Virus record (IMG/VR): IMGVR_UViG_3300010262_000007
Strand: one strand, 5' to 3'
Length of the DNA: 37,945 bases
From: a virus
Shown here: one piece after another, positions 1 to 37,945 of the stretch
How the letters are laid out: every line of letters starts with the position of its first letter
Numbering within the stretch: position 1 is the stretch's first letter
Position numbers and translations under genes: made by a program
The notes under the pieces: generated by a model
The model's input: the letters and a program-made list of their open reading frames with translations, nothing else
The model's database searches: none
What the model was told of the DNA's origin: nothing

Positions 1-123
1 GCGTGACCATCGAGGGGCCTGACGGCACCCAGACCTATCAGGACATGAAGCTGGTCCAGATCAGCAAGGTCGGCAAGAGTTACTGGTTTATCCTGGCCGA
101 GAAGACGGCTGAGGAAAAGCAGA
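1..123. repeat. Direct terminal repeat, left copy (123 bp, identical to 37823..37945)
   Basis: Compared base by base: gcgtgaccatcgaggggcct...gaggaaaagcaga occurs at both window ends. Confidence 0.95.
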
Positions 124-5268: not shown

Positions 5269-5694
5269 ATGGCTGCATATATGAGAAAGACGGGGATCCT
5301 CCCCGTCTGCACCAATAACGAGGCCCGGGCCTACTTCGCCGGCAAGGGCCTCACCTATGCCGACGTGACCGAGGGCGACATCCTCGCCCTGGTCATGCTG
5401 CTGAACAAGCACATCAAGAAGGCGAACAAGGACTGCGAGACCTCGATGGGCTCCATGTACCTGAGCCGCCGAATCGACCTCAAACGGAAGACCAACGGCG
5501 CCCTGATCAGCTGCTTCCTCTACGTCAACAGCCACTACTTCGAGCGCCGGGAGTGCATCAGTTTCAATGCTAACGGCTGGATCGGCTTCGCCGGCTGGGC
5601 TGACCAGGGCAACACCAACCCCATTTTACGAGCATTTATCGAGTGGTGCGACGCGCTCGCTGCCACCAAAGAAAAGGAGGACACACAACAATGA
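5269..5694 (+). CDS. Hypothetical protein
   Basis: 141-aa ORF in the + strand gene series, with RBS GGGAGGA upstream. Confidence 0.55.
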   Translation: MAAYMRKTGILPVCTNNEARAYFAGKGLTYADVTEGDILALVMLLNKHIKKANKDCETSMGSMYLSRRIDLKRKTNGALISCFLYVNSHYFERRECISFNANGWIGFAGWADQGNTNPILRAFIEWCDALAATKEKEDTQQ

Positions 5695-5903
5695 CCCGCT
5701 TCAAGTATTATTCCAATTATCTCGCCCGCCTGCTGGGCACTTTGATCGCCTTCGAGCTCTGCTGGATCGGCGCCAAGTACGTCATCGAGGGCGAGGTGGT
5801 CCACACCTGCCTCGACCACTTCATCGCCGTGTGCGGATCGTTTTATATCACCCGTGACACCATGAAGATCTGGCTGAAGCTCCAGAAGAAGGTTCAGAAA
5901 TAA
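5691..5903 (+). CDS. Hypothetical small protein (70 aa, one hydrophobic segment)
   Basis: ATG at 5691 (ATGA overlap with the previous stop), preceded by AAGGAGGA. Confidence 0.5.
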   Translation: MTRFKYYSNYLARLLGTLIAFELCWIGAKYVIEGEVVHTCLDHFIAVCGSFYITRDTMKIWLKLQKKVQK

Positions 5904-5918
5904 GGAAGGAGGACAAGC

Positions 5919-6119
5919 ATGAACAACAAAGTCATGGCTGAAAAGCTCAGAAAACTGAGAGGTAACAGGAGCCGCCAGGAAGTGGCCGAGGCCTGCGGCA
6001 TCAGCGTCTCCGCTCTGGCTATGTACGAGGCCGGTGAGCGAGTCCCTCGCGACGAGATCAAGATCAAGCTGGCTAAATTCTACAACCGCAGCGTGAGCTA
6101 TATTTTTTTTACGAATTAA
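5919..6119 (+). CDS. Cro-like XRE-family HTH regulator
   Basis: 66 aa with RSRQEVAEACGISVSALAMYEAGERVPRDE (HTH_3). RBS GGAAGGAGGA. Confidence 0.8.
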   Translation: MNNKVMAEKLRKLRGNRSRQEVAEACGISVSALAMYEAGERVPRDEIKIKLAKFYNRSVSYIFFTN

Positions 6120-6136
6120 GTGCACGTATCGTGCTC
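6120..6136. promoter_or_regulatory. Fifth operator-like site GTGCACG-TAT-CGTGCTC
   Basis: Matches the 4593..4609 palindrome at 13 of its 14 half-site positions. Lies directly after the Cro-like gene stop. Confidence 0.4.
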
Positions 6137-6155
6137 GATTTGAAGGAGGACACAC

Positions 6156-6359
6156 ATGGGAAGAAAGAACAGACAACGCAAGCCGGAGCCCTTCAAGTGC
6201 TGCGAGACCTGCGCCAATATGCAACCGATAGGCGAAGGCGATCACATCTGTGACGCCTGCTGCAGCCACGATGGCAGCCCGACCGCTCTCGTCCTGGAGA
6301 GTTACATCCCGGCCGACGACTACTTCATCTGCGAAGGAAGCAGGTGGACACCACAATGA
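6156..6359 (+). CDS. Small Cys-rich (probably zinc-binding) hypothetical protein
   Basis: 67 aa with CCETC...ICDACC...C. RBS GAAGGAGGA. Confidence 0.5.
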   Translation: MGRKNRQRKPEPFKCCETCANMQPIGEGDHICDACCSHDGSPTALVLESYIPADDYFICEGSRWTPQ

Positions 6360-6961
6360 GCGCCACAAACCGAGGCTGCGAGCGCAAGGCCTATGACTTC
6401 TATGCCACCCCGCCGGAAACCGTCCGGGCCTTCCTGGCCAACTTCGACGGCATCAGCTCCGGCGACCGCATCCTGGAGCCTTCTGCCGGCAACGGCCAGA
6501 TCGTCAAAGTGCTGAGGGAAGGCGGATATGACAACCGGATCGACGCCGTGGAGCTGCGACCGGAGGAGCGGGGCACCCTGGAAGCTCTGGCTGACAACGT
6601 CACAATCGGCAGCTTCTTCGACTACGAGCCCGACTGCGGCTACGATGTCGTCATAGGCAACCCGCCCTACAGTCTGGCCCTGGACTTCATCAATAAGAGC
6701 CTGGAGCTGCTGCACCCTGGCGGCCTGCTGATCTTCCTGCTCCGGACGAACTTCCTGGAGAGCGAGAAGCGCTTCAAGTGGTGGCAGGAGCACCCGCTCA
6801 GCGGTCTCTACACCCTGCACAAGCGCCCCAGCTTCACCGGCCGAGGCACCGACGCCACCAGCTACTCCTGGTTTGTGTGGGAGCGGGGGGACCGGCTGCA
6901 TAGGTCATCAGACCATCAAAACCATCTAAGGAGGACAAGCGCATGGAAGACATTGACCTGA
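6356..6961 (+). CDS. N6-adenine-type DNA methyltransferase (NPPY class); C-terminus possibly frameshifted
   Basis: Motif I ILEPSAGNG and motif IV VIGNPPYS. The last ~25 aa (RLHRSSDHQNHLRRTSAWKTLT) look out of frame after a G6 run at 6885..6890. Confidence 0.8.
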   Translation: MSATNRGCERKAYDFYATPPETVRAFLANFDGISSGDRILEPSAGNGQIVKVLREGGYDNRIDAVELRPEERGTLEALADNVTIGSFFDYEPDCGYDVVIGNPPYSLALDFINKSLELLHPGGLLIFLLRTNFLESEKRFKWWQEHPLSGLYTLHKRPSFTGRGTDATSYSWFVWERGDRLHRSSDHQNHLRRTSAWKTLT

Positions 6962-7147: not shown

Positions 7148-7588
7148 ATGAAGATCACCGTCGAATTTGCAAACCTGAACGAGTTCAAGCAGTACATGGG
7201 CGTCGAGTCCCCGAACCTGCTCGCCCAGGCATCCAAGGAAACAGAGGACGCTCCTGCACCCGCTGAGGCCGTCCAGGAGCCCCAGAAAGCACCGGAGGAC
7301 CCTGCCCCTAAGAAGAACACCAAGAAGGTCGAAAAGACCGCCCCTGCGGAAGCTGAGCCCTCTCCTGAGTCTGCTGACGAGGCTGCACCCGCTGCGCCCG
7401 CAGAAGTGACCGAGGACTTCCGCATCACCGTCCGCAAGCAGCTCGCGGCCCTCAACAAGAAGCGCGGCTACAACCGTGCGGCGGAACTCATCAACGAGCA
7501 GACCGGCAAGGGCAAGCTCACCGAAGTCGCACTTGCCGACCTGCCGAAGCTCATGGAAGCAGCAAAGGAGGAAACCAATGCCGACTAA
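7148..7588 (+). CDS. Hypothetical protein with Pro/Ala/Glu-rich low-complexity centre
   Basis: 146-aa ORF. RBS AAGGAGGA upstream. Confidence 0.55.
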   Translation: MKITVEFANLNEFKQYMGVESPNLLAQASKETEDAPAPAEAVQEPQKAPEDPAPKKNTKKVEKTAPAEAEPSPESADEAAPAAPAEVTEDFRITVRKQLAALNKKRGYNRAAELINEQTGKGKLTEVALADLPKLMEAAKEETNAD

Positions 7589-8756
7589 GCACGCCCGCTG
7601 CTCCGCATCGGCCGCATACCGCTGGATCAACTGCCCCGGATCCGTCGCCCTGTCTGATCAGTGTCCGGATCCCGGCTCCAGCAGCTACGCCGACGAGGGA
7701 ACAGTCGCCCACAGCCTGGCCGAGCTGAAGCTCCGCCACGTCCTGCATGAGATCACCGACGCCCAGTACAAGAAGCGCCTGGCCAAGATCCAGCAGGACG
7801 ACTACTACAACGGCGAGATGGACGAGGCCACCGACTTCTATGTCGAGACCGTCCTGGAGGAGTTCGCCGCAGCCGGCGAAGGCGCCGAGCTGATGATCGA
7901 GCAGCGCCTCGATCTTTCCCAATGGATCCCGGAAGGCTTCGGCACTTCCGACGCCGTGATCATCGGCGGCAGCATGATCCAGGTCATCGACCTGAAGTAC
8001 GGCAAAGGTATCAAGGTCGAGGCCAAGAACAACCCCCAGTTCCGCCTCTACGGCCTGGGCGCCGTCTCTCTGTTCGGCGATCTCTACGACTTCGACACCG
8101 TGAAGACCACCGTCGTCCAGCCCCGCCTCGATCACGTTGACAGCGAGGTCGTCATCCTGAAGGAGCTGCTGCTCTGGGGCGAGGAGGAAGTCGCGCCCCG
8201 CGCCATCATGGCCATGGAAGGCTCCGACTACTTTGTGGCCGGCGACTGGTGCCGCTTCTGCCCGGCGAAGGCTCGCTGCCGCAAGCGAGCCGAGTTCAAC
8301 CTGGATCTGGCCCGGATGGAGTTCCAGAAGCCCCCACTGCTCTCCAGCGAGGAGATCGGCGAAGTGCTGGCCAAGGCCGAGCACCTGAAGAAGTGGGCCG
8401 AGGAGGTCAGTGCCTACGCTCTGGAGCAGGCCCTGGCCGGTGAGCACTACGACGGCTGGAAGCTGGTCGAAGGCCGCAGCAACCGCAAGTACGCAGACGA
8501 GATCCAGGTGGCCGACAAGCTGAAGGCTGCCGGCTTCGACGAGGCAATGCTCTACCAGCGCAAGCTCTACGGCATCACCGAGATGGAGAAGCTCGTCGGC
8601 AAGAAGAAGCTGGCCGCCACTCTGGGCGACCTGCTGATCAAACCCGCAGGCAAGCCGGTCCTCGTGCCGGAGTCTGATAAACGCGAAGCCATCAACACAA
8701 CCGAAGCGGCTCAGGCCGACTTCACCACCGGCGACGACGAGGTCGCGCCGTTCTAA
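7578..8756 (+). CDS. PD-(D/E)XK nuclease, DUF2800 family (Cas4-like Cys cluster)
   Basis: Starts MPTKHARCSASAAYRWINCPGS (typical DUF2800 N-terminus). Contains IDLKYGKG and C-terminal CRFCPAKARC. ATG at 7578 follows AAAGGAGGA. Confidence 0.8.
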   Translation: MPTKHARCSASAAYRWINCPGSVALSDQCPDPGSSSYADEGTVAHSLAELKLRHVLHEITDAQYKKRLAKIQQDDYYNGEMDEATDFYVETVLEEFAAAGEGAELMIEQRLDLSQWIPEGFGTSDAVIIGGSMIQVIDLKYGKGIKVEAKNNPQFRLYGLGAVSLFGDLYDFDTVKTTVVQPRLDHVDSEVVILKELLLWGEEEVAPRAIMAMEGSDYFVAGDWCRFCPAKARCRKRAEFNLDLARMEFQKPPLLSSEEIGEVLAKAEHLKKWAEEVSAYALEQALAGEHYDGWKLVEGRSNRKYADEIQVADKLKAAGFDEAMLYQRKLYGITEMEKLVGKKKLAATLGDLLIKPAGKPVLVPESDKREAINTTEAAQADFTTGDDEVAPF

Positions 8757-8774
8757 ATTAAGGAGGATTATAAA

Positions 8775-9323
8775 ATGTCTACTACCAAAGTTATCACCGG
8801 AAAAGTTCGTTTCAGCTATGTGAACATCTTCAAGAGCCGTGCCTTCCAGGCTGGCCAGGACGCCAAGTACAGCGTGTGCCTGCTGATCCCTAAAGAGGAC
8901 AAGGCCACCATCAAGAAGATCAAGGCAGCCATCGACGCAGCTGTCCAGGACGGCATCAGCTCCAAGTGGGGCGGCAAGAAGCCCGCCAACCTGAAGCAGC
9001 CTCTGCGCGACGGCGACGCCGAGCGTGCCGATGAGGCTCCTGAGTACGAGGGTATGTACTTCCTCAACTGCAACAGCACCCAGAAGCCCGGCATCGTGGA
9101 CAAAGATCTGAACGAGATCCTGGATCTCGACGAGGTCTACTCCGGCTGCTGGGGCCGCGCCTCCATCAACTTCTTCCCCTTCAACACCAACGGCAACAAG
9201 GGTGTCGGCGTCGGCCTGAATAACATCCAGAAGCTGAAGGACGACGACCGCCTGGGCGCTGCCCGTGCTTCTGCCAAGTCCGACTTCGGCGGCGACGACT
9301 TCGAGGACGACGAGGACTTCTAA
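8775..9323 (+). CDS. DUF2815-family single-stranded DNA-binding-like protein
   Basis: Starts TGKVRFSYVNIF. Acidic tail DDFEDDEDF. Sits in the conserved DUF2800-DUF2815-PolA gene order. Confidence 0.75.
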   Translation: MSTTKVITGKVRFSYVNIFKSRAFQAGQDAKYSVCLLIPKEDKATIKKIKAAIDAAVQDGISSKWGGKKPANLKQPLRDGDAERADEAPEYEGMYFLNCNSTQKPGIVDKDLNEILDLDEVYSGCWGRASINFFPFNTNGNKGVGVGLNNIQKLKDDDRLGAARASAKSDFGGDDFEDDEDF

Positions 9324-11323: not shown

Positions 11324-11881
11324 ATGAAAATTAACCGCACCATGACCATCGAAACCAACGAGATCCAGATCGGCGACCGCATCCAGGTCGGCCACTATAC
11401 CGCCACCTGCCAGGCTCTGCCTGGCGAAGGCCTGGCTCTTTTCCTTCTGGACCAGTATCTCGACAAGGCCATGCAGATGAACGAGAAGAACACCAACAAG
11501 GGCGGCTACCAGGAGAGCGATCTCCGCGAGGAGCTCAACAGCGAGAAGATTCTGAAGGACTTCACTGGTCTGGAGCTGGCGCCCTTCGACAACGGCGATC
11601 TGCTCCGTCTGCCGTTCTACGGCGAGATGTTCGGGCACGATGACTGGTACAACTCCGGCGCCGTGGAGCCTGACGACTGCGAGCAGTGGCCTCTGATGAA
11701 GGAACGCGCCAATCGCGTCGCCGAACGCAAGGGCGAAAGCTACGAGTGGGGATGGCTCCAGAACAAGTACGTCCAGTCGGCGACGGATTTCTGCGGTGTC
11801 GGCGACGACGGTTATGCCTACGCCTGGAACGCCTCGAACTCCATCGGCGTCCGCCCGGCTTTCCTGATCAAATTATCGTAA
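11324..11881 (+). CDS. DGR target protein 1: small non-structural protein with C-terminal CLec-type variable region
   Basis: C-terminus ...WLQNKYVQSATDFCGVGDDGYAYAWNASNSIGVRPAFLIKLS parallels the fibre target. Its last ~94 nt are a near-copy of 35576..35669 and 36292..36390. Confidence 0.8.
   Translation: MKINRTMTIETNEIQIGDRIQVGHYTATCQALPGEGLALFLLDQYLDKAMQMNEKNTNKGGYQESDLREELNSEKILKDFTGLELAPFDNGDLLRLPFYGEMFGHDDWYNSGAVEPDDCEQWPLMKERANRVAERKGESYEWGWLQNKYVQSATDFCGVGDDGYAYAWNASNSIGVRPAFLIKLS
11770..11863 (+). repeat. DGR variable region VR1
   Basis: In the 89-nt core (of 94 nt) it differs from VR2 at 15 positions, all at codon position 1 or 2. Shares the GC-rich 3' block TCGGCGTCCGCCCGG. Confidence 0.8.
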
Positions 11882-11885
11882 ATCC

Positions 11886-11904
11886 CGGGGGCCTCGTGCC
11901 CCCG
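11886..11904 (+). promoter_or_regulatory. GC hairpin downstream of VR1 (DGR target-recognition hairpin/cruciform candidate)
   Basis: Stem CGGGGGC / GCCCCCG with loop CTCGT, about 22 nt after the VR homology ends. Same loop and spacing as 35690..35710. Confidence 0.65.
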
Positions 11905-17707: not shown

Positions 17708-18120
17708 CTTTAGATGAGACCTATGACTTCCTGATGCAGATCCGCCGCAAGGAGATCATCATCAGACGGAAAGAGACCCAGCGGGACGAGCTGAGGGCCT
17801 GCCTGCTGCCTGGCGCCATCCGCTATGACCGCGACAGGGTCCAGAGCACTCCGACCGATAAGATGGCCGACGTCATCGTCAGAGTGGACGAGCTGGACCG
17901 AGAGATCGAGCAGCTCCGGCGTGAGAAGGCCTCCCTGGTCATCGAGATCAGCGACGCCATTGAGACGCTGAAGGACGACTACGAGAGAACCGTGCTGACC
18001 GAGTTCTACATAGCACGGGCGCCGATGACCGAGGTGGCTGACGCCATCAACTACAGCGTCCGCAGGGCGTATCATTTCAGGAAGAAGGGCGTCACCCATC
18101 TGGGGGAGGTTTTAGGATGA
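17704..18120 (+). CDS. Sigma-70 region-4-like late transcriptional activator (DUF1492/RinA-like)
   Basis: C-terminal HTH: ERTVLTEFYIARAPMTEVADAINYSVRRAYHFRKKG. Located upstream of the packaging module. Confidence 0.55.
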   Translation: MTLDETYDFLMQIRRKEIIIRRKETQRDELRACLLPGAIRYDRDRVQSTPTDKMADVIVRVDELDREIEQLRREKASLVIEISDAIETLKDDYERTVLTEFYIARAPMTEVADAINYSVRRAYHFRKKGVTHLGEVLG

Positions 18121-18868
18121 TCAAACTGTTAAAAGGCAACTGTCTCGACCTTCTGCGGCAGCTGGAGCCCGGCTGCGCGGATCTCGTTCTGATAGATCCG
18201 CCATATTCCAGCGGCGGCCTGTTTGCCGGCGACCGCAAACAGGACACTCGCGTCAAGTACACCGATGCCGACTTCAACGGCGCGGCACGCTTCCCCAGCT
18301 TCTCCGGTGACAACATGGACCAGCACAGCTTCATCCAGTTTATGACCCATGTCAGCATGGAGCTCAGAGAGTTGACCAAGGAAGGCGGCACCATCGCCGC
18401 CTTCATCGACTGGCGAAACCTTCCGGCCATGACGGACGCGATCCAGATGGCCGGCTGGGTATGGCGTGGGGTCATTGTCTGGGACAAGGGCATCAGCCGA
18501 AACATCCCCGGCCGCTTTCGTAACGACTGCGAGTACATCGTCTGGGGCACCAACGGCCGGAAAGAGGTGGACTGGAAGGCAGCCAAGGGCGCCAAGGCCA
18601 TGCCAGGCATCTACCACATCAACGGCGTCAACACCAAGCAGAAGCACCACCAGACGGAGAAGCCCGTGGAACTCCTGAAGGCCCTGATCCAGATCTGTCC
18701 AAGGGGGGGGGGGCCGTGGTGGACTGCTTCATGGGATCCGGCAGCACGGGCGTCGCTTGCGTCCAGGAGGGCCGGAACTTCATCGGCATCGAGCTGGGCG
18801 ACCAATACTTCGACACGGCCACCAAGCGCATCCAGGAGGCCGAGGACGAACTACTGAACGACTTTTAG
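18117..18868 (+). CDS. Beta-class N4/N6 DNA methyltransferase, frameshifted at a G11 tract
   Basis: Motif IV LIDPPYSSGG is in the ATG frame. Motif I VVDCFMGSGSTG and the rest (..GIELGDQYFDTATKRIQEAEDELLNDF, TAG at 18866..18868) are only in the other frame, from 18716. 9 or 12 G would restore the frame. Confidence 0.8.
18703..18713 (+). repeat. Homopolymeric G11 tract inside the methyltransferase gene
   Basis: Counted directly: aa-ggggggggggg-ccgtgg. Confidence 0.95.
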
Positions 18869-33720: not shown

Positions 33721-34698
33721 ATGGCCATGAGATACGGCTATTTTGACTCGGAGATCACCGGCGTGGACTCCGAGGGTATGCCTATTTTTGACAGAGCAGA
33801 GACGTCGGAACTGTTCCGCCTGCTCTTTTCCAAACTGCTGACCAATGGCGTGCTGGCCAAGCCTGCCGACTGCTTCAAAGTGCTGGCAGGCGACACTGGC
33901 CTGAGCGTCACGGTCCGCCCTGGCTTCGGCCTGATCAACGGCGCCTTCGCCTATGATCCCGCCCCTGCCACTTTCCAGCTGGCCGCAGCTCCAACGAGCT
34001 ACAGCCGCATCGACCGCGTCGTGCTGCGCTGCAACTACCTGGAGCGCCTCTGCGAGATCATCGTGAAGACCGGCACGGCAGCGACAACGCCCCAGGCTCC
34101 GGAGCTCATCCAGCCCGTCAGCGGTGACTACTACGAGCTGGGCCTGGCAAATGTAACGGTCAGCGCCAACCAGACCGTCATCACTCAGAGCTCCATCAAC
34201 GACACCCGCCCCAACAGCGCAGTCTGCGGCTACATCACCCAGTTCATTGACAGCATCGACACCGAGGCCTTCTATGACCAGTTCAATGCCTTCTATGCCG
34301 AGTTTGTGGCCAAGTCCAACGCCAGCTACTCCCAGTTCGAGCAGATGGCCAGAGCAGCCTATGACGGCTTCACGGCTGCCATCGACGAATACATCGAGGC
34401 GCTGGAGACCAAGGGCAACACAGATCTGACCGCCGTCACGGAGGCCATGAAAGAGTTCCAGCGCACCAGCCAGAACGCTTTCAACGAGTGGTTTGCCACC
34501 GTGCGGGGCCTTCTGGACGAGGACGTCGCCGGCAGGCTCATCAACAAGACGAACGATCTGGACGAGCGCCTGACCGCTCTGGAATACATGATCATCCACA
34601 ACGATCTGTTCACTCACGTCGTTGACGATGACGGCAACCCGATCCTGGACGACGATGGCAACGCGATCATCGGCGACTGGAAATATAAAACCGCATAA
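33721..34698 (+). CDS. Tail fibre / baseplate structural protein with coiled-coil C-terminal half
   Basis: 325 aa, between the Gp37-like protein and the DGR-diversified fibre. Confidence 0.5.
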   Translation: MAMRYGYFDSEITGVDSEGMPIFDRAETSELFRLLFSKLLTNGVLAKPADCFKVLAGDTGLSVTVRPGFGLINGAFAYDPAPATFQLAAAPTSYSRIDRVVLRCNYLERLCEIIVKTGTAATTPQAPELIQPVSGDYYELGLANVTVSANQTVITQSSINDTRPNSAVCGYITQFIDSIDTEAFYDQFNAFYAEFVAKSNASYSQFEQMARAAYDGFTAAIDEYIEALETKGNTDLTAVTEAMKEFQRTSQNAFNEWFATVRGLLDEDVAGRLINKTNDLDERLTALEYMIIHNDLFTHVVDDDGNPILDDDGNAIIGDWKYKTA

Positions 34699-34709
34699 GG
34701 AGGAACATT

Positions 34710-35681
34710 ATGCAGATTGACGTAACAAACGGCAAACGCTTCACAGAGTACGACGCGCTGGCTGCCGTAGCCAGCGAGGAGGACGTTCTCCTGGTACGAC
34801 TCGCAGACGGCGCAGGCGTCAAGAGGATCCCTATCAGCGCCATCAAGGCCTTCATCAATGGAGACCTGGACACGCTGGAGACTGAGGACAAGACCAGCCT
34901 GATCGCCGCCATCAACGAAGTCTTCGGCCTGGTAGGCACCAATGCCCAAGACATCAAAGCCCTGAAGGAGCTGACCACAATGCTCGGCCAGACTGGGGCA
35001 TCCAGGGCCAACTCCTTCATCTATGAGCACGACCTCGGCACCAGCTTCACCGCTGAGCAGTCCGCCGACATCCGTGCCGGCAAGTTTGAGAAGGTCCGCA
35101 CTGGCGGCTACTGGACCATCAACGGCCACAAATACTGGGCCGCCCATGCTAACTACCGTCTGCACTGCGGCGACACCGAGCTGACCACCCACCATATGCT
35201 GGTCATCCCCGACAAGCCCTTCTATAACGGCGTGATGAATGACACTAACGTCACGACCGGCTCCTACTACGGCAGCAAGATGAAGACCTCCGGCCTGGCC
35301 AACGCTCTGGCCACTGTCAAGGCTGACTTCGGCGCAGACCACATCCTGACTCACAGGATCCTCCTGGCCAACGCTGTCAGCAATGGCGCCAGCTCCGGCT
35401 GGGCATGGTACGACAGCCAGATCGACCTGATGAACGAGCACATGGTCTACGGCTCCTACGCATGGGGCGGCGGAGCGCAGAACGGCTACGACGTCGGGGC
35501 AGACAAGAGCCAGCTGGCTCTGTTCCAGGCACGCCCGGATCTGATCACGAACAGAGAGAACTGGTGGCTGAGAGACGTCCGGTCGGCGTCGCATTTCTGC
35601 AGTGTCAGCGGCAGCGGTGGTGCCAACGACGGGAACGCCTCGTACTCCTTCGGCGTCCGCCCGGCTTTCCTGATCTATTGA
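34710..35681 (+). CDS. DGR target protein 2: receptor-binding tail fibre with C-terminal CLec-type variable region (Mtd analogue)
   Basis: C-terminus ...NRENWWLRDVRSASHFCSVSGSGGANDGNASYSFGVRPAFLIY. Its last ~94 nt are repeated in the TR-like segment and in VR1. Confidence 0.85.
   Translation: MQIDVTNGKRFTEYDALAAVASEEDVLLVRLADGAGVKRIPISAIKAFINGDLDTLETEDKTSLIAAINEVFGLVGTNAQDIKALKELTTMLGQTGASRANSFIYEHDLGTSFTAEQSADIRAGKFEKVRTGGYWTINGHKYWAAHANYRLHCGDTELTTHHMLVIPDKPFYNGVMNDTNVTTGSYYGSKMKTSGLANALATVKADFGADHILTHRILLANAVSNGASSGWAWYDSQIDLMNEHMVYGSYAWGGGAQNGYDVGADKSQLALFQARPDLITNRENWWLRDVRSASHFCSVSGSGGANDGNASYSFGVRPAFLIY
35576..35669 (+). repeat. DGR variable region VR2
   Basis: 94 nt, aligned to VR1 and to 36292..36390. 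Ends in the GC-rich block TCGGCGTCCGCCCGG (IMH-like). Confidence 0.8.
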
Positions 35682-35689
35682 TCAAAAAT

Positions 35690-35710
35690 CCCGGCCCCTC
35701 GTGGGCCGGG
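35690..35710 (+). promoter_or_regulatory. GC hairpin downstream of VR2 (DGR target-recognition hairpin candidate)
   Basis: Stem CCCGGCCC / GGGCCGGG with loop CTCGT, about 20 nt after the VR homology ends. Confidence 0.65.
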
Positions 35711-35737
35711 TAAATCTAATCAAGGAGATAAGATAGC

Positions 35738-36265
35738 GTGTCAGACATCCCCAAAAGTAAAAGAGCATATTCCAACCTGGAAGCGCACCACAAGGCGCTG
35801 GAGATCCGCAGGAAGATCGCGGTGGAGCTCCTGGCCGGCTTCGCCTACAGCGAGAAAAAGCTGGAGGAAGCCGTCCGGAAGCAGACGCAACACATCCAGG
35901 ACCCTGAGCATAGGGCGGAGGCCGCCCAGGCCATCCGCAACCTGGAGGAAGACTTCGCCTGCTGGTTTATCAAGCGCCACCGCGACCGGGTGGACGACCT
36001 CTGCTGCGACATCGCGCAGCATCTCAGAGGCGCCAATACCATCTGGCCGACCTACCACTTCGAGTATAAGGACAGGCGCGGTGAGCTAAACCAGGCGCTG
36101 AAGTGCTGCAACAAGCTCCAGGACGAGCTCCAGTACATCGCCGAGTCGCTGCCGGCAGACAAGAACAAGTATATGGACATCGTGCTGGAAGTCGAGGCCC
36201 TGTTCAACATGATCAAGGCACTGCGGCAGTCTGACAACCGTCTCCTGAAGCATCTGAAAGACTAA
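35738..36265 (+). CDS. avd: Accessory variability determinant (Avd-like helical-bundle protein)
   Basis: GTG start after AAGGAG. 175 aa, all-helical and basic. Occupies the canonical slot between VR and TR. Longer than typical Avd proteins. Confidence 0.6.
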   Translation: MSDIPKSKRAYSNLEAHHKALEIRRKIAVELLAGFAYSEKKLEEAVRKQTQHIQDPEHRAEAAQAIRNLEEDFACWFIKRHRDRVDDLCCDIAQHLRGANTIWPTYHFEYKDRRGELNQALKCCNKLQDELQYIAESLPADKNKYMDIVLEVEALFNMIKALRQSDNRLLKHLKD

Positions 36266-36291
36266 GAATATAGGGTGTCCTCTGTACGGGC

Positions 36292-36390
36292 CGTCCGGTC
36301 GGCGGCGGGTTTCTGCGGGGTCGTCTGCGCCGGGGGGGGGGGCCGGCGCCTGGGCCGGCCTCGCCCTCCCTCGGCGTCCGCCCGGATTTC
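36292..36390 (+). repeat. DGR template-repeat-like segment (non-coding, adenine-free, 5 nt longer than the VRs)
   Basis: Shares CGTCCGGTCGGCG...TTTCTGC...TCGGCGTCCGCCCGG with both VRs. No A between 36287 and 36385. Lies between avd and the RT gene. Confidence 0.7.
36332..36342 (+). repeat. Homopolymeric G11 tract inside the TR-like segment
   Basis: Counted directly: gcgcc-ggggggggggg-ccggcg. Confidence 0.95.
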
Positions 36391-36502
36391 ACAACTGCAC
36401 AAAGTCATCGGGCAAGTTCCCGCGTGCAGCAATGGGAAAGGAGAGGCCATCCTTCCAGCGGAAGCTGGTAAATGCTAACCAGGACGCTCCCGGTCACGAC
36501 CG

Positions 36503-37828
36503 ATGGGGCTATCGCGTGGTTTTTATATGACTGTATATTTTGATGCTAATAACATTTATGACGCCGGGACCAAGGCGATGCAAAGCAGCAAGTTCAAACA
36601 CGGCACCCAGCTGTTCGAGATGAACCACCTGCTGACCACTGCCCACATCCGGCAGGACTTTATCACCGGCGACTACAAGCCGGATCCGGGCAACAAGTTC
36701 CCGATCAATGAGCGCGGGCATCCGCGCTACATAACCAGTAACACGATGGTGGACAAGACGGTCAACCATCTGCTCTGCGACGAGGTGCTGACGCCGTCCA
36801 TCAGCAAGTACCTGATCTATGACAACGGCGCCTCACAGAAGGGCAAGGGTGTGGCTTTCCATCGTCGCCGCTTCGAGGCTCGACTGCATCAGTATTTCAT
36901 GCAAAACGGCACCAACGAGGGATACATCCTCCTGGTGGACTTCTCCGGCTATTATGCCAACATCCCGCACGACAAGTGCCTGGAGGTGCTCCAGACGTTC
37001 CTGGAGCGCGAAGTCGAAGATCCGGAGACGCTGGCCATCACTGAGATGCTGCTGCCGCTCATCTTCAAGACCTTCGAGCAGGACGTCTCTCGTTTCACTG
37101 ACAAGGAGATCGAGGCGATGATGGCCGGAAAAATCGACCCGATGCTGAACTACGGCGTGGATCCAGCGCTCCTGACCGGCGAGAAAATGCTCCGGAAGGG
37201 TGTGGACATCGGCTCCCAGCCTTCGCAGAACATCGGCATCGTCTACCCCTACCGGCTGGACAATTATGCCAAGATCGTCAAGGCGGTCAAAGGATACGGC
37301 CGTTATACCGATGACTCCTACGCAATCGCCCGGACCCGGGAGGAGCTGCTGGAACTTCTGGACGGTCTGGAGAAGGAGGCGAAAGAGTATGGGCTGATAA
37401 TTAACCGCAAGAAAACCAGGATCGTGAAATTGTCCTCAGAGTTCCGGCACCTGCAGGTGTGCTACTCCTTAACAGAGACCGGCAGAATTATCCGGAAGAT
37501 CAACCCGAAGAACATCACAAGGGAGCGGCGCAAGCTGAAGGCCTACAAGCGCCTGCTCGATAGCGGCCGCATCGACTACGCGACGGTCGAGAACGCCTTC
37601 AAGTCCTGGCTGGGAAGTCACTGGAAGTATATGTCGCATGATCAAGTTTATAACATGAGCAGCCTCTACTATGAGCTGTTCGGAAGGAGACCAAAATGGA
37701 AAAAAGGACATGGAAGATTACACTGGCTGATGGCACATCCCTCGACGGCCTCGACCTCAACGGGAACAACTACATCAGCTCCGCCGCCGTCGCCGAGGCC
37801 ACCTTCGCCGGTAAGCTCTCCAGCGTGA
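36503..37828 (+). CDS. DGR-type reverse transcriptase
   Basis: LLVDFSGYYANIPH, IGSQPSQ (the [LIV]GxxxSQ DGR signature), GRYTDDSYAIA (YxDD) and NRKKTRIV. The start is uncertain (ATG at 36503 or 36527, neither with a clear RBS). The last ~44 codons overlap the next gene. Confidence 0.85.
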   Translation: MGLSRGFYMTVYFDANNIYDAGTKAMQSSKFKHGTQLFEMNHLLTTAHIRQDFITGDYKPDPGNKFPINERGHPRYITSNTMVDKTVNHLLCDEVLTPSISKYLIYDNGASQKGKGVAFHRRRFEARLHQYFMQNGTNEGYILLVDFSGYYANIPHDKCLEVLQTFLEREVEDPETLAITEMLLPLIFKTFEQDVSRFTDKEIEAMMAGKIDPMLNYGVDPALLTGEKMLRKGVDIGSQPSQNIGIVYPYRLDNYAKIVKAVKGYGRYTDDSYAIARTREELLELLDGLEKEAKEYGLIINRKKTRIVKLSSEFRHLQVCYSLTETGRIIRKINPKNITRERRKLKAYKRLLDSGRIDYATVENAFKSWLGSHWKYMSHDQVYNMSSLYYELFGRRPKWKKGHGRLHWLMAHPSTASTSTGTTTSAPPPSPRPPSPVSSPA

Positions 37829-37945
37829 CCATCGAGGGGCCTGACGGCACCCAGACCTATCAGGACATGAAGCTGGTCCAGATCAGCAAGGTCGGCAAGA
37901 GTTACTGGTTTATCCTGGCCGAGAAGACGGCTGAGGAAAAGCAGA
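37696..37945 (+). CDS. Hypothetical phage protein, N-terminal part of the wrap-around gene (continues at 124..224)
   Basis: ATG at 37696 is preceded by GGAAGGAGA (37682..37690). The frame is open to the window end and identical to 3..123 across the repeat. Confidence 0.6.
   Translation, partial: MEKRTWKITLADGTSLDGLDLNGNNYISSAAVAEATFAGKLSSVTIEGPDGTQTYQDMKLVQISKVGKSYWFILAEKTAEEKQ
37823..37945. repeat. Direct terminal repeat, right copy
   Basis: Identical to 1..123. Confidence 0.95.

Follow-up and report, generated by a model that had tools for sequence, protein, structure and literature searches.

The stretch of DNA analysed here, the 37,945 nucleotides (nt) of IMG/VR virus record IMGVR_UViG_3300010262_000007 taken as a whole and called the window below, is a phage genome with a diversity-generating retroelement (DGR) whose template repeat (TR) has lost every adenine from the part that is transferred to its targets. 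The region is a bona fide DGR that serves two DUF6273 proteins and has the architecture of the element of Bordetella phage BPP-1. On balance we consider it probable that the template of this two-target DGR was overwritten by the element's own mutagenised cDNA and that the copy is burnt out. The broader proposal, that a natural DGR in a wild gut phage went on destroying its own template until no adenine was left and that a related contig, L049, represents an intermediate stage, stands in our judgement at about an even chance. Judging by its sequence, this copy would no longer be able to diversify, and further homing would copy a fixed, frameshifting sequence into both targets. DGRs with two DUF6273 targets have already been described in phages of gut Clostridia; the new point is the adenine-free template.

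An earlier note, made by a model from the sequence alone, had described the region as a phage-borne DGR beside the tail genes. All the features it listed are confirmed to be present at the coordinates it gave, and the canonical order of the components and their position adjoining distal tail genes are supported. Its interpretation of the region is partly supported, and the part that did not stand concerns the template.

A template without adenines

The non-coding segment 36292..36390 was said to repeat the end of a fibre gene (35576..35669), and it does: BLASTN within the window aligns the two with 72.7% identity over 99 columns with 2 gaps (E 5e-10). The note did not report that this non-coding copy holds a single A in 99 nt (G44 C37 T17) and is 5 nt longer than both variable repeats (VRs) of the target genes. 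The single A lies within IMH*, the sequence that stands at the TR in place of the initiation of mutagenic homing (IMH) sequence of the VRs, and thus outside the transferred part. Mismatches between TR and VR in this genome fall at G, C or T of the TR and not at A, and they come with an indel of 4-5 nt, so that the variation is not confined to adenines. With no adenine in the transferred part and 4 or 5 extra nt, the segment cannot act as a mutagenic template. The added length also means that homing would shift the reading frame of both targets and destroy their conserved ...GVRPAFLI C-terminus.

These properties bear directly on the simplest reading of the region, in which the DGR is canonical and currently active and 36292..36390 is the working template that randomises the VR of the fibre gene here. 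All components are present in canonical order, the RT (reverse transcriptase) is intact and the lineage is clearly active, but the template would have its sole A in IMH*, mismatches to its VRs at G, C or T and not at A, and 4-5 nt too many for either target, while the VRs keep adenines that the TR is missing. We regard an active DGR as highly improbable, and for this genome as assembled the sequence itself already refutes it. The role of mutagenic template that the earlier note gave to this segment is lost with it.

The state of the TR in this genome stands out against that of its relatives, which were collected from IMG/VR and metagenome contigs and include dozens with an RT 96-100% identical to that of the window and genomes about 98% identical. 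Their TR is 89 nt long, A-rich and essentially invariant (CGTCCAGTCGGCGACGAATTTCTGCAATGTCAACAACAACGGTAATGCCAACAACTGGAACGCCTCGAACTCCATCGGCGTCCGCCCGG). About 60 TR copies were fetched from relatives and nearly all are A-rich; the TRs of related lineages show few non-adenine differences, mostly T/C, and keep all adenines. From relatives' contigs with an RT 96-100% identical, 9 alleles of VR1 and 37 of VR2 were taken, 46 in total and all distinct. Each of the 23 TR adenines is polymorphic in both VRs, and none of the 66 non-A positions varies among the 9 VR1 alleles. Since all TR adenines vary and the non-A positions of VR1 do not, diversification in the lineage is canonical and adenine-specific. 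The alleles retain 41% of adenines on average, with substitutions in the order G>C>T. The lineage DGR is, by these sequence patterns, active and canonical; the programmed diversification proposed in the earlier note therefore holds for the lineage and fails for this genome with its adenine-free TR.

Non-A changes in VR2 are mostly singletons. The one recurrent change, T>G at TR position 55 (TGG>GGG), occurs in 4/27 alleles, one of which is the VR2 of the window (position 35631), and it is also found in the TR of L049. It may mark either a hot spot of non-A mutagenesis or a segregating polymorphism of the TR.

Against the consensus of 38 relatives, the interval 36200..36560 carries 33 differences, and 32 of them lie inside a tract of 81 nt, 36290..36370. 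Within the tract all 24 adenines are replaced (16 by G, 6 by C and 2 by T), whereas none of the 71 flanking adenines is changed (Fisher p = 5e-23). Three of the 17 T are changed to G (36319, 36338 and 36341), C and G are unchanged, and extra G are inserted, four at 36332-36335 and one at 36357; a G11 run occupies 36332..36342. Downstream of the tract, 36371..36560, which includes the 13-mer, IMH* and spacer, is identical to the consensus. The spectrum of replacements in the tract does not differ from that at the adenine sites of the VRs (chi-square p = 0.26).

The ends of the tract are informative as well. The changed adenines reach from 36290, about 25 nt past the stop codon of the accessory gene and 2 nt outside the VR homology, to 36370, immediately upstream of the G+C-rich 13-mer. 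A changed A at a position that the VRs do not cover argues that the donor was derived from the TR and not from a VR. Synthesis of cDNA in BPP-1 begins within the G+C-rich 3' end of the TR (at TR G117, primed by A56 of the spacer) and yields products of about 90 and 120 nt (PMC6182149); a motif at the 3' end of the avd mRNA brings it to a stop (PMC12875486). The boundaries of the tract fit the cDNA expected of a DGR.

The VRs of the window record an earlier state of the template. VR1 differs from the canonical TR of the relatives at 10 positions, all of them adenines, and VR2 at 12, of which 11 are adenines and one is the T>G described above. Apart from that T>G both VRs fit the canonical TR, and they keep adenines where the present TR has G or C, which indicates that the A-rich ancestral TR was their template and that they predate its loss. 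The window holds no third VR that matches the adenine-free TR, and exact and degenerate pattern scans of IMG/VR, metagenome and GTDB genome contigs did not find the adenine-free TR.

A less advanced case is provided by L049 (OLRV01014129.1), in which erosion of the TR ending at 2380 is partial (5 A>N changes, 1 T>G). The VR2 of this contig, which ends at 1664, shares 5/6 of the TR changes in a patchy, non-contiguous pattern. Such a pattern is apparently what would be expected of a partly eroded TR that later served as template. The spacer of L049 also carries an A>C change 16 nt downstream of the G+C-rich 13-mer.

How the template may have been lost

The normal cycle of a DGR is taken here from established DGR biology, and what is observed in the window is its footprint in the sequence. 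In that cycle a transcript of the avd-like gene, TR and spacer would be reverse-transcribed by the RT from the G+C-rich 3' end of the TR, the adenines of the template would be miscopied, and the cDNA would replace the VR, marked as the recipient by its IMH and the hairpin downstream. Erosion of the template would follow if a TR-derived, adenine-mutagenised cDNA were integrated back into the TR locus (self-homing). This may have happened in several successive rounds or in a single pass that miscopied every adenine, as might occur when dTTP is limiting, and slippage in the run may then have added the extra G.

Elements of this scheme have precedents. The bRT-Avd complex synthesises cDNA without TTP, misincorporating at every adenine (PMC6182149), and BPP-1 has a hairpin-independent homing pathway of low efficiency (PMC3240598). 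Synthetic DGRs coupled to RecT in E. coli mutate their own TR, losing dA preferentially (bioRxiv 10.1101/2025.03.24.644984; 10.64898/2026.07.21.739853). Template erosion has so far been reported only in such synthetic DGRs, which their authors contrast with natural ones; a preprint on them regards it as a fault of synthetic systems from which natural DGRs are free. The window encodes an exonuclease and a Gp2.5-like single-stranded DNA (ssDNA) annealing protein (7476..9323), and it may be speculated that, in parallel with RecT, they give the cDNA a route into the TR that depends on homology only. The two proteins make up a module of the recombineering type, through which DGR cDNA could anneal to any locus with homology, the TR included.

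Several observations weigh against self-homing as the origin of the tract. No change in cis that would make the TR a recipient, such as a conversion of IMH* to IMH or a new hairpin, was found, as 36371..36560 equals the consensus. At about 59% substitution per adenine, one ordinary pass would clear all 24 adenines with a probability of ~3e-6. Four or five rounds would then be needed, yet the VRs bear no trace of intermediate templates, which is hard to reconcile with such a series of events. Among the roughly 60 TR copies just one other is partly eroded. The remaining objections concern the assembled sequence itself. The tract was recovered in two further assemblies, found by an exact look-up of the target-2 protein and by no other route: a MEGAHIT contig of 37,962 bp in the European Nucleotide Archive (ERZ27241761, L061) and a Logan contig of run SRR5190358 (L062). 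All three assemblies are identical elsewhere and hence probably come from one sample or read set. The length of the G run differs between them (G11 in the window, G10 in L061, while L062 ends inside the run), and a second G run of the window, 18703..18713, is also aberrant in comparison with relatives. Base calls in or beside G runs, among them the three T>G changes and the inserted G, may for this reason be wrong.

The same observations are the main argument for an artefact of sequencing or assembly, in which the true TR would be canonical and A-rich and the tract would be an error of base calling, consensus or graph traversal in a G+C-rich repeat. Besides the unstable run length, the break of the Logan contig inside the run and the apparent origin of all supporting assemblies from one sample, the second G run shows the same kind of difference from relatives, A>G with extra G. 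We nevertheless consider an artefact unlikely. Three different assemblers gave the same tract of 81 nt, connected at either end to a unique flank, so it is not an invention of one assembler. The changes affect 24/24 A, 3/17 T and no C or G in the tract and 0/71 A in the adjoining 280 nt, a combination of base specificity and confinement to a functional element that is not known of any platform error. A chimera of VR and TR cannot yield the tract, as no VR allele is adenine-free. Loss of signal in two-colour chemistry was rejected as a candidate on the basis of the changes in the tract, with no C>G, 3/17 T and 24/24 A.

The second G run deserves a comment of its own. It lies in the open reading frame (ORF) 18117..18857, a DNA methyltransferase gene that G11 puts out of frame, while relatives have at this place either G8A, which keeps the frame and restores the ...AVVDCFMGSGSTG motif, or G9A. 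The gene may be phase-variable or the homopolymer miscalled; the type of change, A>G plus extra G, is that of the eroded TR.

Recombination offers another origin for the tract. A VR of this genome or of a co-infecting relative might have been copied into the TR by gene conversion or homologous recombination without self-directed reverse transcription, since the three repeats share identical stretches of 13-30 nt able to support recombination; the TR changes of L049, moreover, largely coincide with its VR2. A VR donor is nonetheless very unlikely. With 41% of adenines kept on average, 0/46 alleles are adenine-free; the VRs of the window show many differences from the tract and do not have its inserted G; the change of A to G at 36290 falls outside the VR/TR homology, and the changes shared within L049 are patchy and form no contiguous tract.

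Hypermutation of adenines by another agent, an adenosine or adenine deaminase acting on the highly transcribed or single-stranded TR independently of the RT, would account for the 16/24 changes that are A>G, the signature of a deaminase. The other 8/24, A>C or A>T, are not products of deamination, and the whole spectrum matches that of the element's own VRs. The limits of the tract are those expected of the cDNA, and no adenine has changed in the co-transcribed spacer or at the 3' end of the accessory gene. An external deaminase is in our opinion a highly improbable source. Overwriting of the TR by cDNA of the element thus remains the reading we prefer, at the strength given at the outset.

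Components of the element

The components follow each other in the order target with VR, IMH, hairpin, helical accessory gene, TR, structured spacer and RT (Table 1), and a second target with its own VR, IMH and hairpin lies elsewhere in the genome.

Table 1. Positions in the window of the parts of the DGR and of two phage genes discussed with it
Feature	Position	Strand	Description and basis
Exonuclease	7476..8756		PHROG 69
Gp2.5-like ssDNA-binding/annealing protein	8775..9323		PHROG 112
DGR target gene 1	11324..11881	+	185 aa, DUF6273; Pfam DUF6273 E 1e-6; PHROG 21980 E 7e-35
VR1, 3' end of target 1	11770..11858	+	Third copy of the repeat, 83% identical to VR2
Target-site hairpin 1	11886..11904		7-bp stem CGGGGGC/GCCCCCG, loop CTCGT; DNA fold -9.5 kcal/mol, z -3.2
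DGR target gene 2	34710..35681	+	323 aa; Pfam DUF6273 E 2e-6, residues 265-322
VR2, 3' end of target 2	35576..35664	+	Repeat detection
IMH	35652..35675	+	G+C-rich 13-mer GGCGTCCGCCCGG, then CTTTCCTGATC
Target-site hairpin 2	35690..35710		8-bp stem CCCGGCCC/GGGCCGGG, loop CTCGT; DNA fold -14.3 kcal/mol, z -5.7
Accessory gene in Avd position	35738..36265	+	175 aa, helical bundle, pI 7.8
Eroded tract	36290..36370	+	81 nt; comparison with consensus of 38 relatives
TR, eroded, adenine-free	36292..36385	+	94 nt, 89 nt in relatives
IMH* (ATTTCACAAC) and structured spacer of the DGR RNA, between TR and RT	36386..36502	+	Identical to relatives' consensus
DGR reverse transcriptase	36503..37828	+	441 aa; Pfam RVT_1 E 2.4e-11; PHROG 1423 'reverse transcriptase' E 4e-45

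Target gene 2 follows genes for Dit-like and Sipho_Gp37-like tail proteins, and its DUF6273 segment is C-terminal. The label 'fibre gene' given to it in the earlier note is based on this gene position and on one marginal PHROG match. Among 5122 database homologues, the top 113 are 83-95% identical, yet the VR peptides are distinct in 113/114 sequences; entropy reaches 2.1-3.6 bits at 11 positions within residues 295-314 and is <=1.6 bits elsewhere. Target gene 1 is remote from this site. It lies between the DNA polymerase and primase/helicase genes and not among structural genes, it has 1126 database homologues, and the copy of the repeat at its end (11770..11858) was omitted from the earlier note. 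Both targets score above the Pfam threshold for DUF6273. For the C-type lectin (CLec) scaffold that had been proposed for the C-terminus of the target, published models of DUF6273 domains, described as C-lectin-like, speak in favour (PMC10743442; bioRxiv 10.1101/2024.10.15.618418). The AlphaFold2 (AF2) model of target 1 had a predicted local distance difference test (pLDDT) score of 67, and <50 across the VR. Foldseek found no PDB match for this model and, in BFVD, matches to DUF6273 proteins only; no CLec fold was recovered, and since the VR part of the model is of low confidence, this structural comparison is uninformative on the point.

Signals that define the recipient are shared by the two targets. 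The 13-mer GGCGTCCGCCCGG is present in all three copies of the repeat; at the two VRs it continues into CTTTCCTGATC and at the TR into ATTTCACAAC. A 24-nt copy identical to the IMH of VR2 stands at 11846..11869. The GC hairpin listed in the earlier note is there, behind target 2 (35690..35710, 8 bp, z = -5.7 against shuffled sequences), and it has a counterpart behind target 1. The hairpins begin 26 nt (hairpin 2) and 28 nt (hairpin 1) after the 13-mer and have the same loop on different stems, and DNA folding gave no comparable hairpin downstream of the TR. The same arrangement of IMH and hairpin defines the recipient in BPP-1, where the stem counts by its structure and the loop by its sequence (PMC3240598).

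The spacer between TR and RT is 117 nt long. Folded with RNAalifold on 7 divergent relatives, it forms 46 pairs, 14 of them with compensatory changes, and on this comparative prediction it is a conserved structured RNA. A local helix is predicted between GAACTCC of the TR and GGATTTC, and two of its pairs are lost in the eroded TR.

The RT is as the earlier note described it, with IGSQPSQ at residues 236-242 (37208..37228) and YTDD at residues 268-271 (37304..37315), and both motifs are invariant across five divergent relatives. The motif (I/V/L)GxxxSQ in RT domain 4 has been used as a definition of DGR RTs (PMC3521204). A search of the PDB with the single sequence gave the bRT of Bordetella phage (8ub7, E 4.6e-4) as the only match. 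With a profile of the RT, bRT 8ub7 was again at the top (1.6e-7), nearly tied with the RT of a group II maturase (2.8e-7), a ranking that is not decisive on the clade. A group II intron RT/maturase was rejected on the basis of a score of 46 bits against the cut-off of 300 for TIGR04416 and of the motif, IGxxxSQ and not QGxxxSP; the Rfam scan of 35500..36700 revealed no intron RNA and nothing meaningful in that interval. RTs of the retron, DRT and Abi types were rejected likewise, with 15-25 bits for Drt4, Drt2, Drt3a and retron St85 against cut-offs of 200-450. The RT ends in a tail rich in Pro, Ser and Thr (HPSTASTSTGTTTSAPPPSPRPPSPVSSPA; 37700..37828) that is conserved in close relatives.

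A helical ORF in the position of Avd was also reported correctly (35738..36265), and its AF2 model is an all-helical bundle with pLDDT 79. Position and helicity are the parts of the Avd assignment that stand. The protein has no match in Pfam, NCBIfam or PHROG, and its family of 194 clusters, with a mean pI of 8.2, has no Pfam annotation. Avd was rejected by sequence, as 0/41 family members match PF05635 at E <= 1. Foldseek with the model returned 2rld and 2gsc (probability 0.87-1.0, target-normalised TM-score 0.64-0.75), at E values of 0.17-2.3 that are not significant; matches to these two with a TM-score of 0.73-0.75 had E values of 0.17-0.4. We take these two structures to be four-helix bundles of the same Pfam family as Avd; neither Avd structure was among the top 50 Foldseek matches. 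ORF 35738..36265 is thus an accessory protein in the Avd position, not placed in the Avd family by sequence, and its modelled fold bears a weak resemblance to that family. The Avd of BPP-1 has 128 aa, and the pI of avd homologues averages 9.5; the CH1 class is acidic (PMC5758913), which the accessory protein with its pI of 7.8 is not.

The accessory protein of this genome is a private allele with the substitutions S34G and F169L, the latter caused by T>C at 36242. F169 is invariant in 45/45 family members of the same length and present in all relatives checked. This sample was the only one in which the exact protein was found, while the RT in its exact form is ubiquitous. An apparent L169 in other relatives was dismissed as an indexing artefact of length variants, which carry F. 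F169L could be a cause of the loss (relaxed discrimination of targets), a consequence of it (relaxed selection after burn-out or the first decay) or a coincidence.

Known elements and the phage

The element shares with the mtd-avd-TR-brt DGR of BPP-1 the gene order, a VR at the 3' end of the target, the SQ motif of the RT, a G+C-rich IMH followed by a hairpin with variable stem and kept loop, IMH* at the TR, a structured spacer before the RT and, in the lineage, adenine-specific variation. It differs in having two targets, one of them 24 kb away, which are DUF6273 proteins and not Mtd, and in its longer accessory protein without a match to Avd models (175 aa, pI 7.8, against 128 aa). A>G dominates here, whereas the most frequent error of the BPP-1 system in vitro is misincorporation of dATP (A>T), and the TR of this genome is adenine-free.

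Closer parallels, compared by description and not by sequence, are the DGRs of the Faecalibacterium prophages Lelie and CP11 (PMC11792537), of nd4 and nd12 (PMC10743442) and of Toutatisvirus (bioRxiv 10.1101/2024.10.15.618418). There too, a large and a small DUF6273 protein share one DGR, the VR is at the C-terminus of DUF6273, one target is remote (17 kb in Toutatisvirus) and the hosts are gut Clostridia. None of these reports describes a template stripped of adenines.

The closest annotated genome, Acutalibacter phage Fontainebleau (ON453893.1), is syntenic with the window and 70.8% identical in nucleotide sequence over 34000..37945. At the same place it carries a TR/VR pair of 94 nt in canonical form and an RT 60% identical, but its TR is A-rich and full of AAC codons, and the annotated RT (5513..6538) has 341 aa against 441 aa here; aligned with the RT of the window, it ends about 85 residues earlier. 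The record annotates only 'reverse transcriptase' and hypothetical proteins.

Synthetic DGRs coupled to RecT (DGRec, bioRxiv 10.1101/2025.03.24.644984; continuous-evolution DGR, 10.64898/2026.07.21.739853) resemble the proposed history in that the template locus receives adenine-mutagenised cDNA and progressively loses dA. They are systems of engineered E. coli in which homing is replaced by recombineering, whereas here a wild phage genome is concerned and erosion is complete; the ssDNA-annealing protein is RecT there and the Gp2.5-like protein here, whose involvement is speculative.

What is understood of the immunity of a template to the mutagenesis of its own DGR comes from engineered constructs of BPP-1 only. 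If erosion by self-homing is true, the discrimination by IMH* and hairpin that protects the template would be leaky in nature, and the life of a DGR would be finite unless selection purges eroded templates. A phage ssDNA-annealing protein may then open a homology-only route for the cDNA. The wild eroded genome and L049 would offer a natural system in which to study how often templates are hit, by which route (IMH-dependent homing or annealing by a recombinase) and how fast such templates are purged. DGR finders that require A-to-N mismatches will miss or misclassify copies with an eroded TR. The burnt-out template would be noteworthy if confirmed at the read level, while the DGR itself is ordinary and the phage species very common.

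The phage is a widespread temperate gut siphophage. The ends of the window overlap by 123 nt (1..123 and 37823..37945), and it is accordingly a complete circular or permuted genome, with the gene downstream of the RT spanning the ends. It encodes lysis proteins, a methyltransferase, the exonuclease, the Gp2.5-like annealing protein, DNA polymerase, primase/helicase, terminase, portal, head and tail proteins, and the DGR cassette is placed behind the genes for the Dit-like and Sipho_Gp37-like tail proteins. An assembly collection lists the exact RT protein in 927 blocks, and some contigs with it reach 608 kb, from which it follows that the phage is temperate and very common. No integrase was matched among the ORFs scanned against PHROGs, a subset of those in the genome, and a search for hosts in GTDB genomes returned as its sole match one fragment, 61% identical, in a bin of a metagenome-assembled genome.

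In two relatives (L003 and L004, IMGVR_UViG_3300029767_000275 and 3300029414_000249), a position corresponding to ~6902 of the window, at the end of a methyltransferase gene and beside a G run, is joined directly to ~36438 in the TR-RT spacer (at ~3936 of these contigs). The junction occurs in contigs of two samples and may be a deletion or rearrangement variant or a recurrent chimera.

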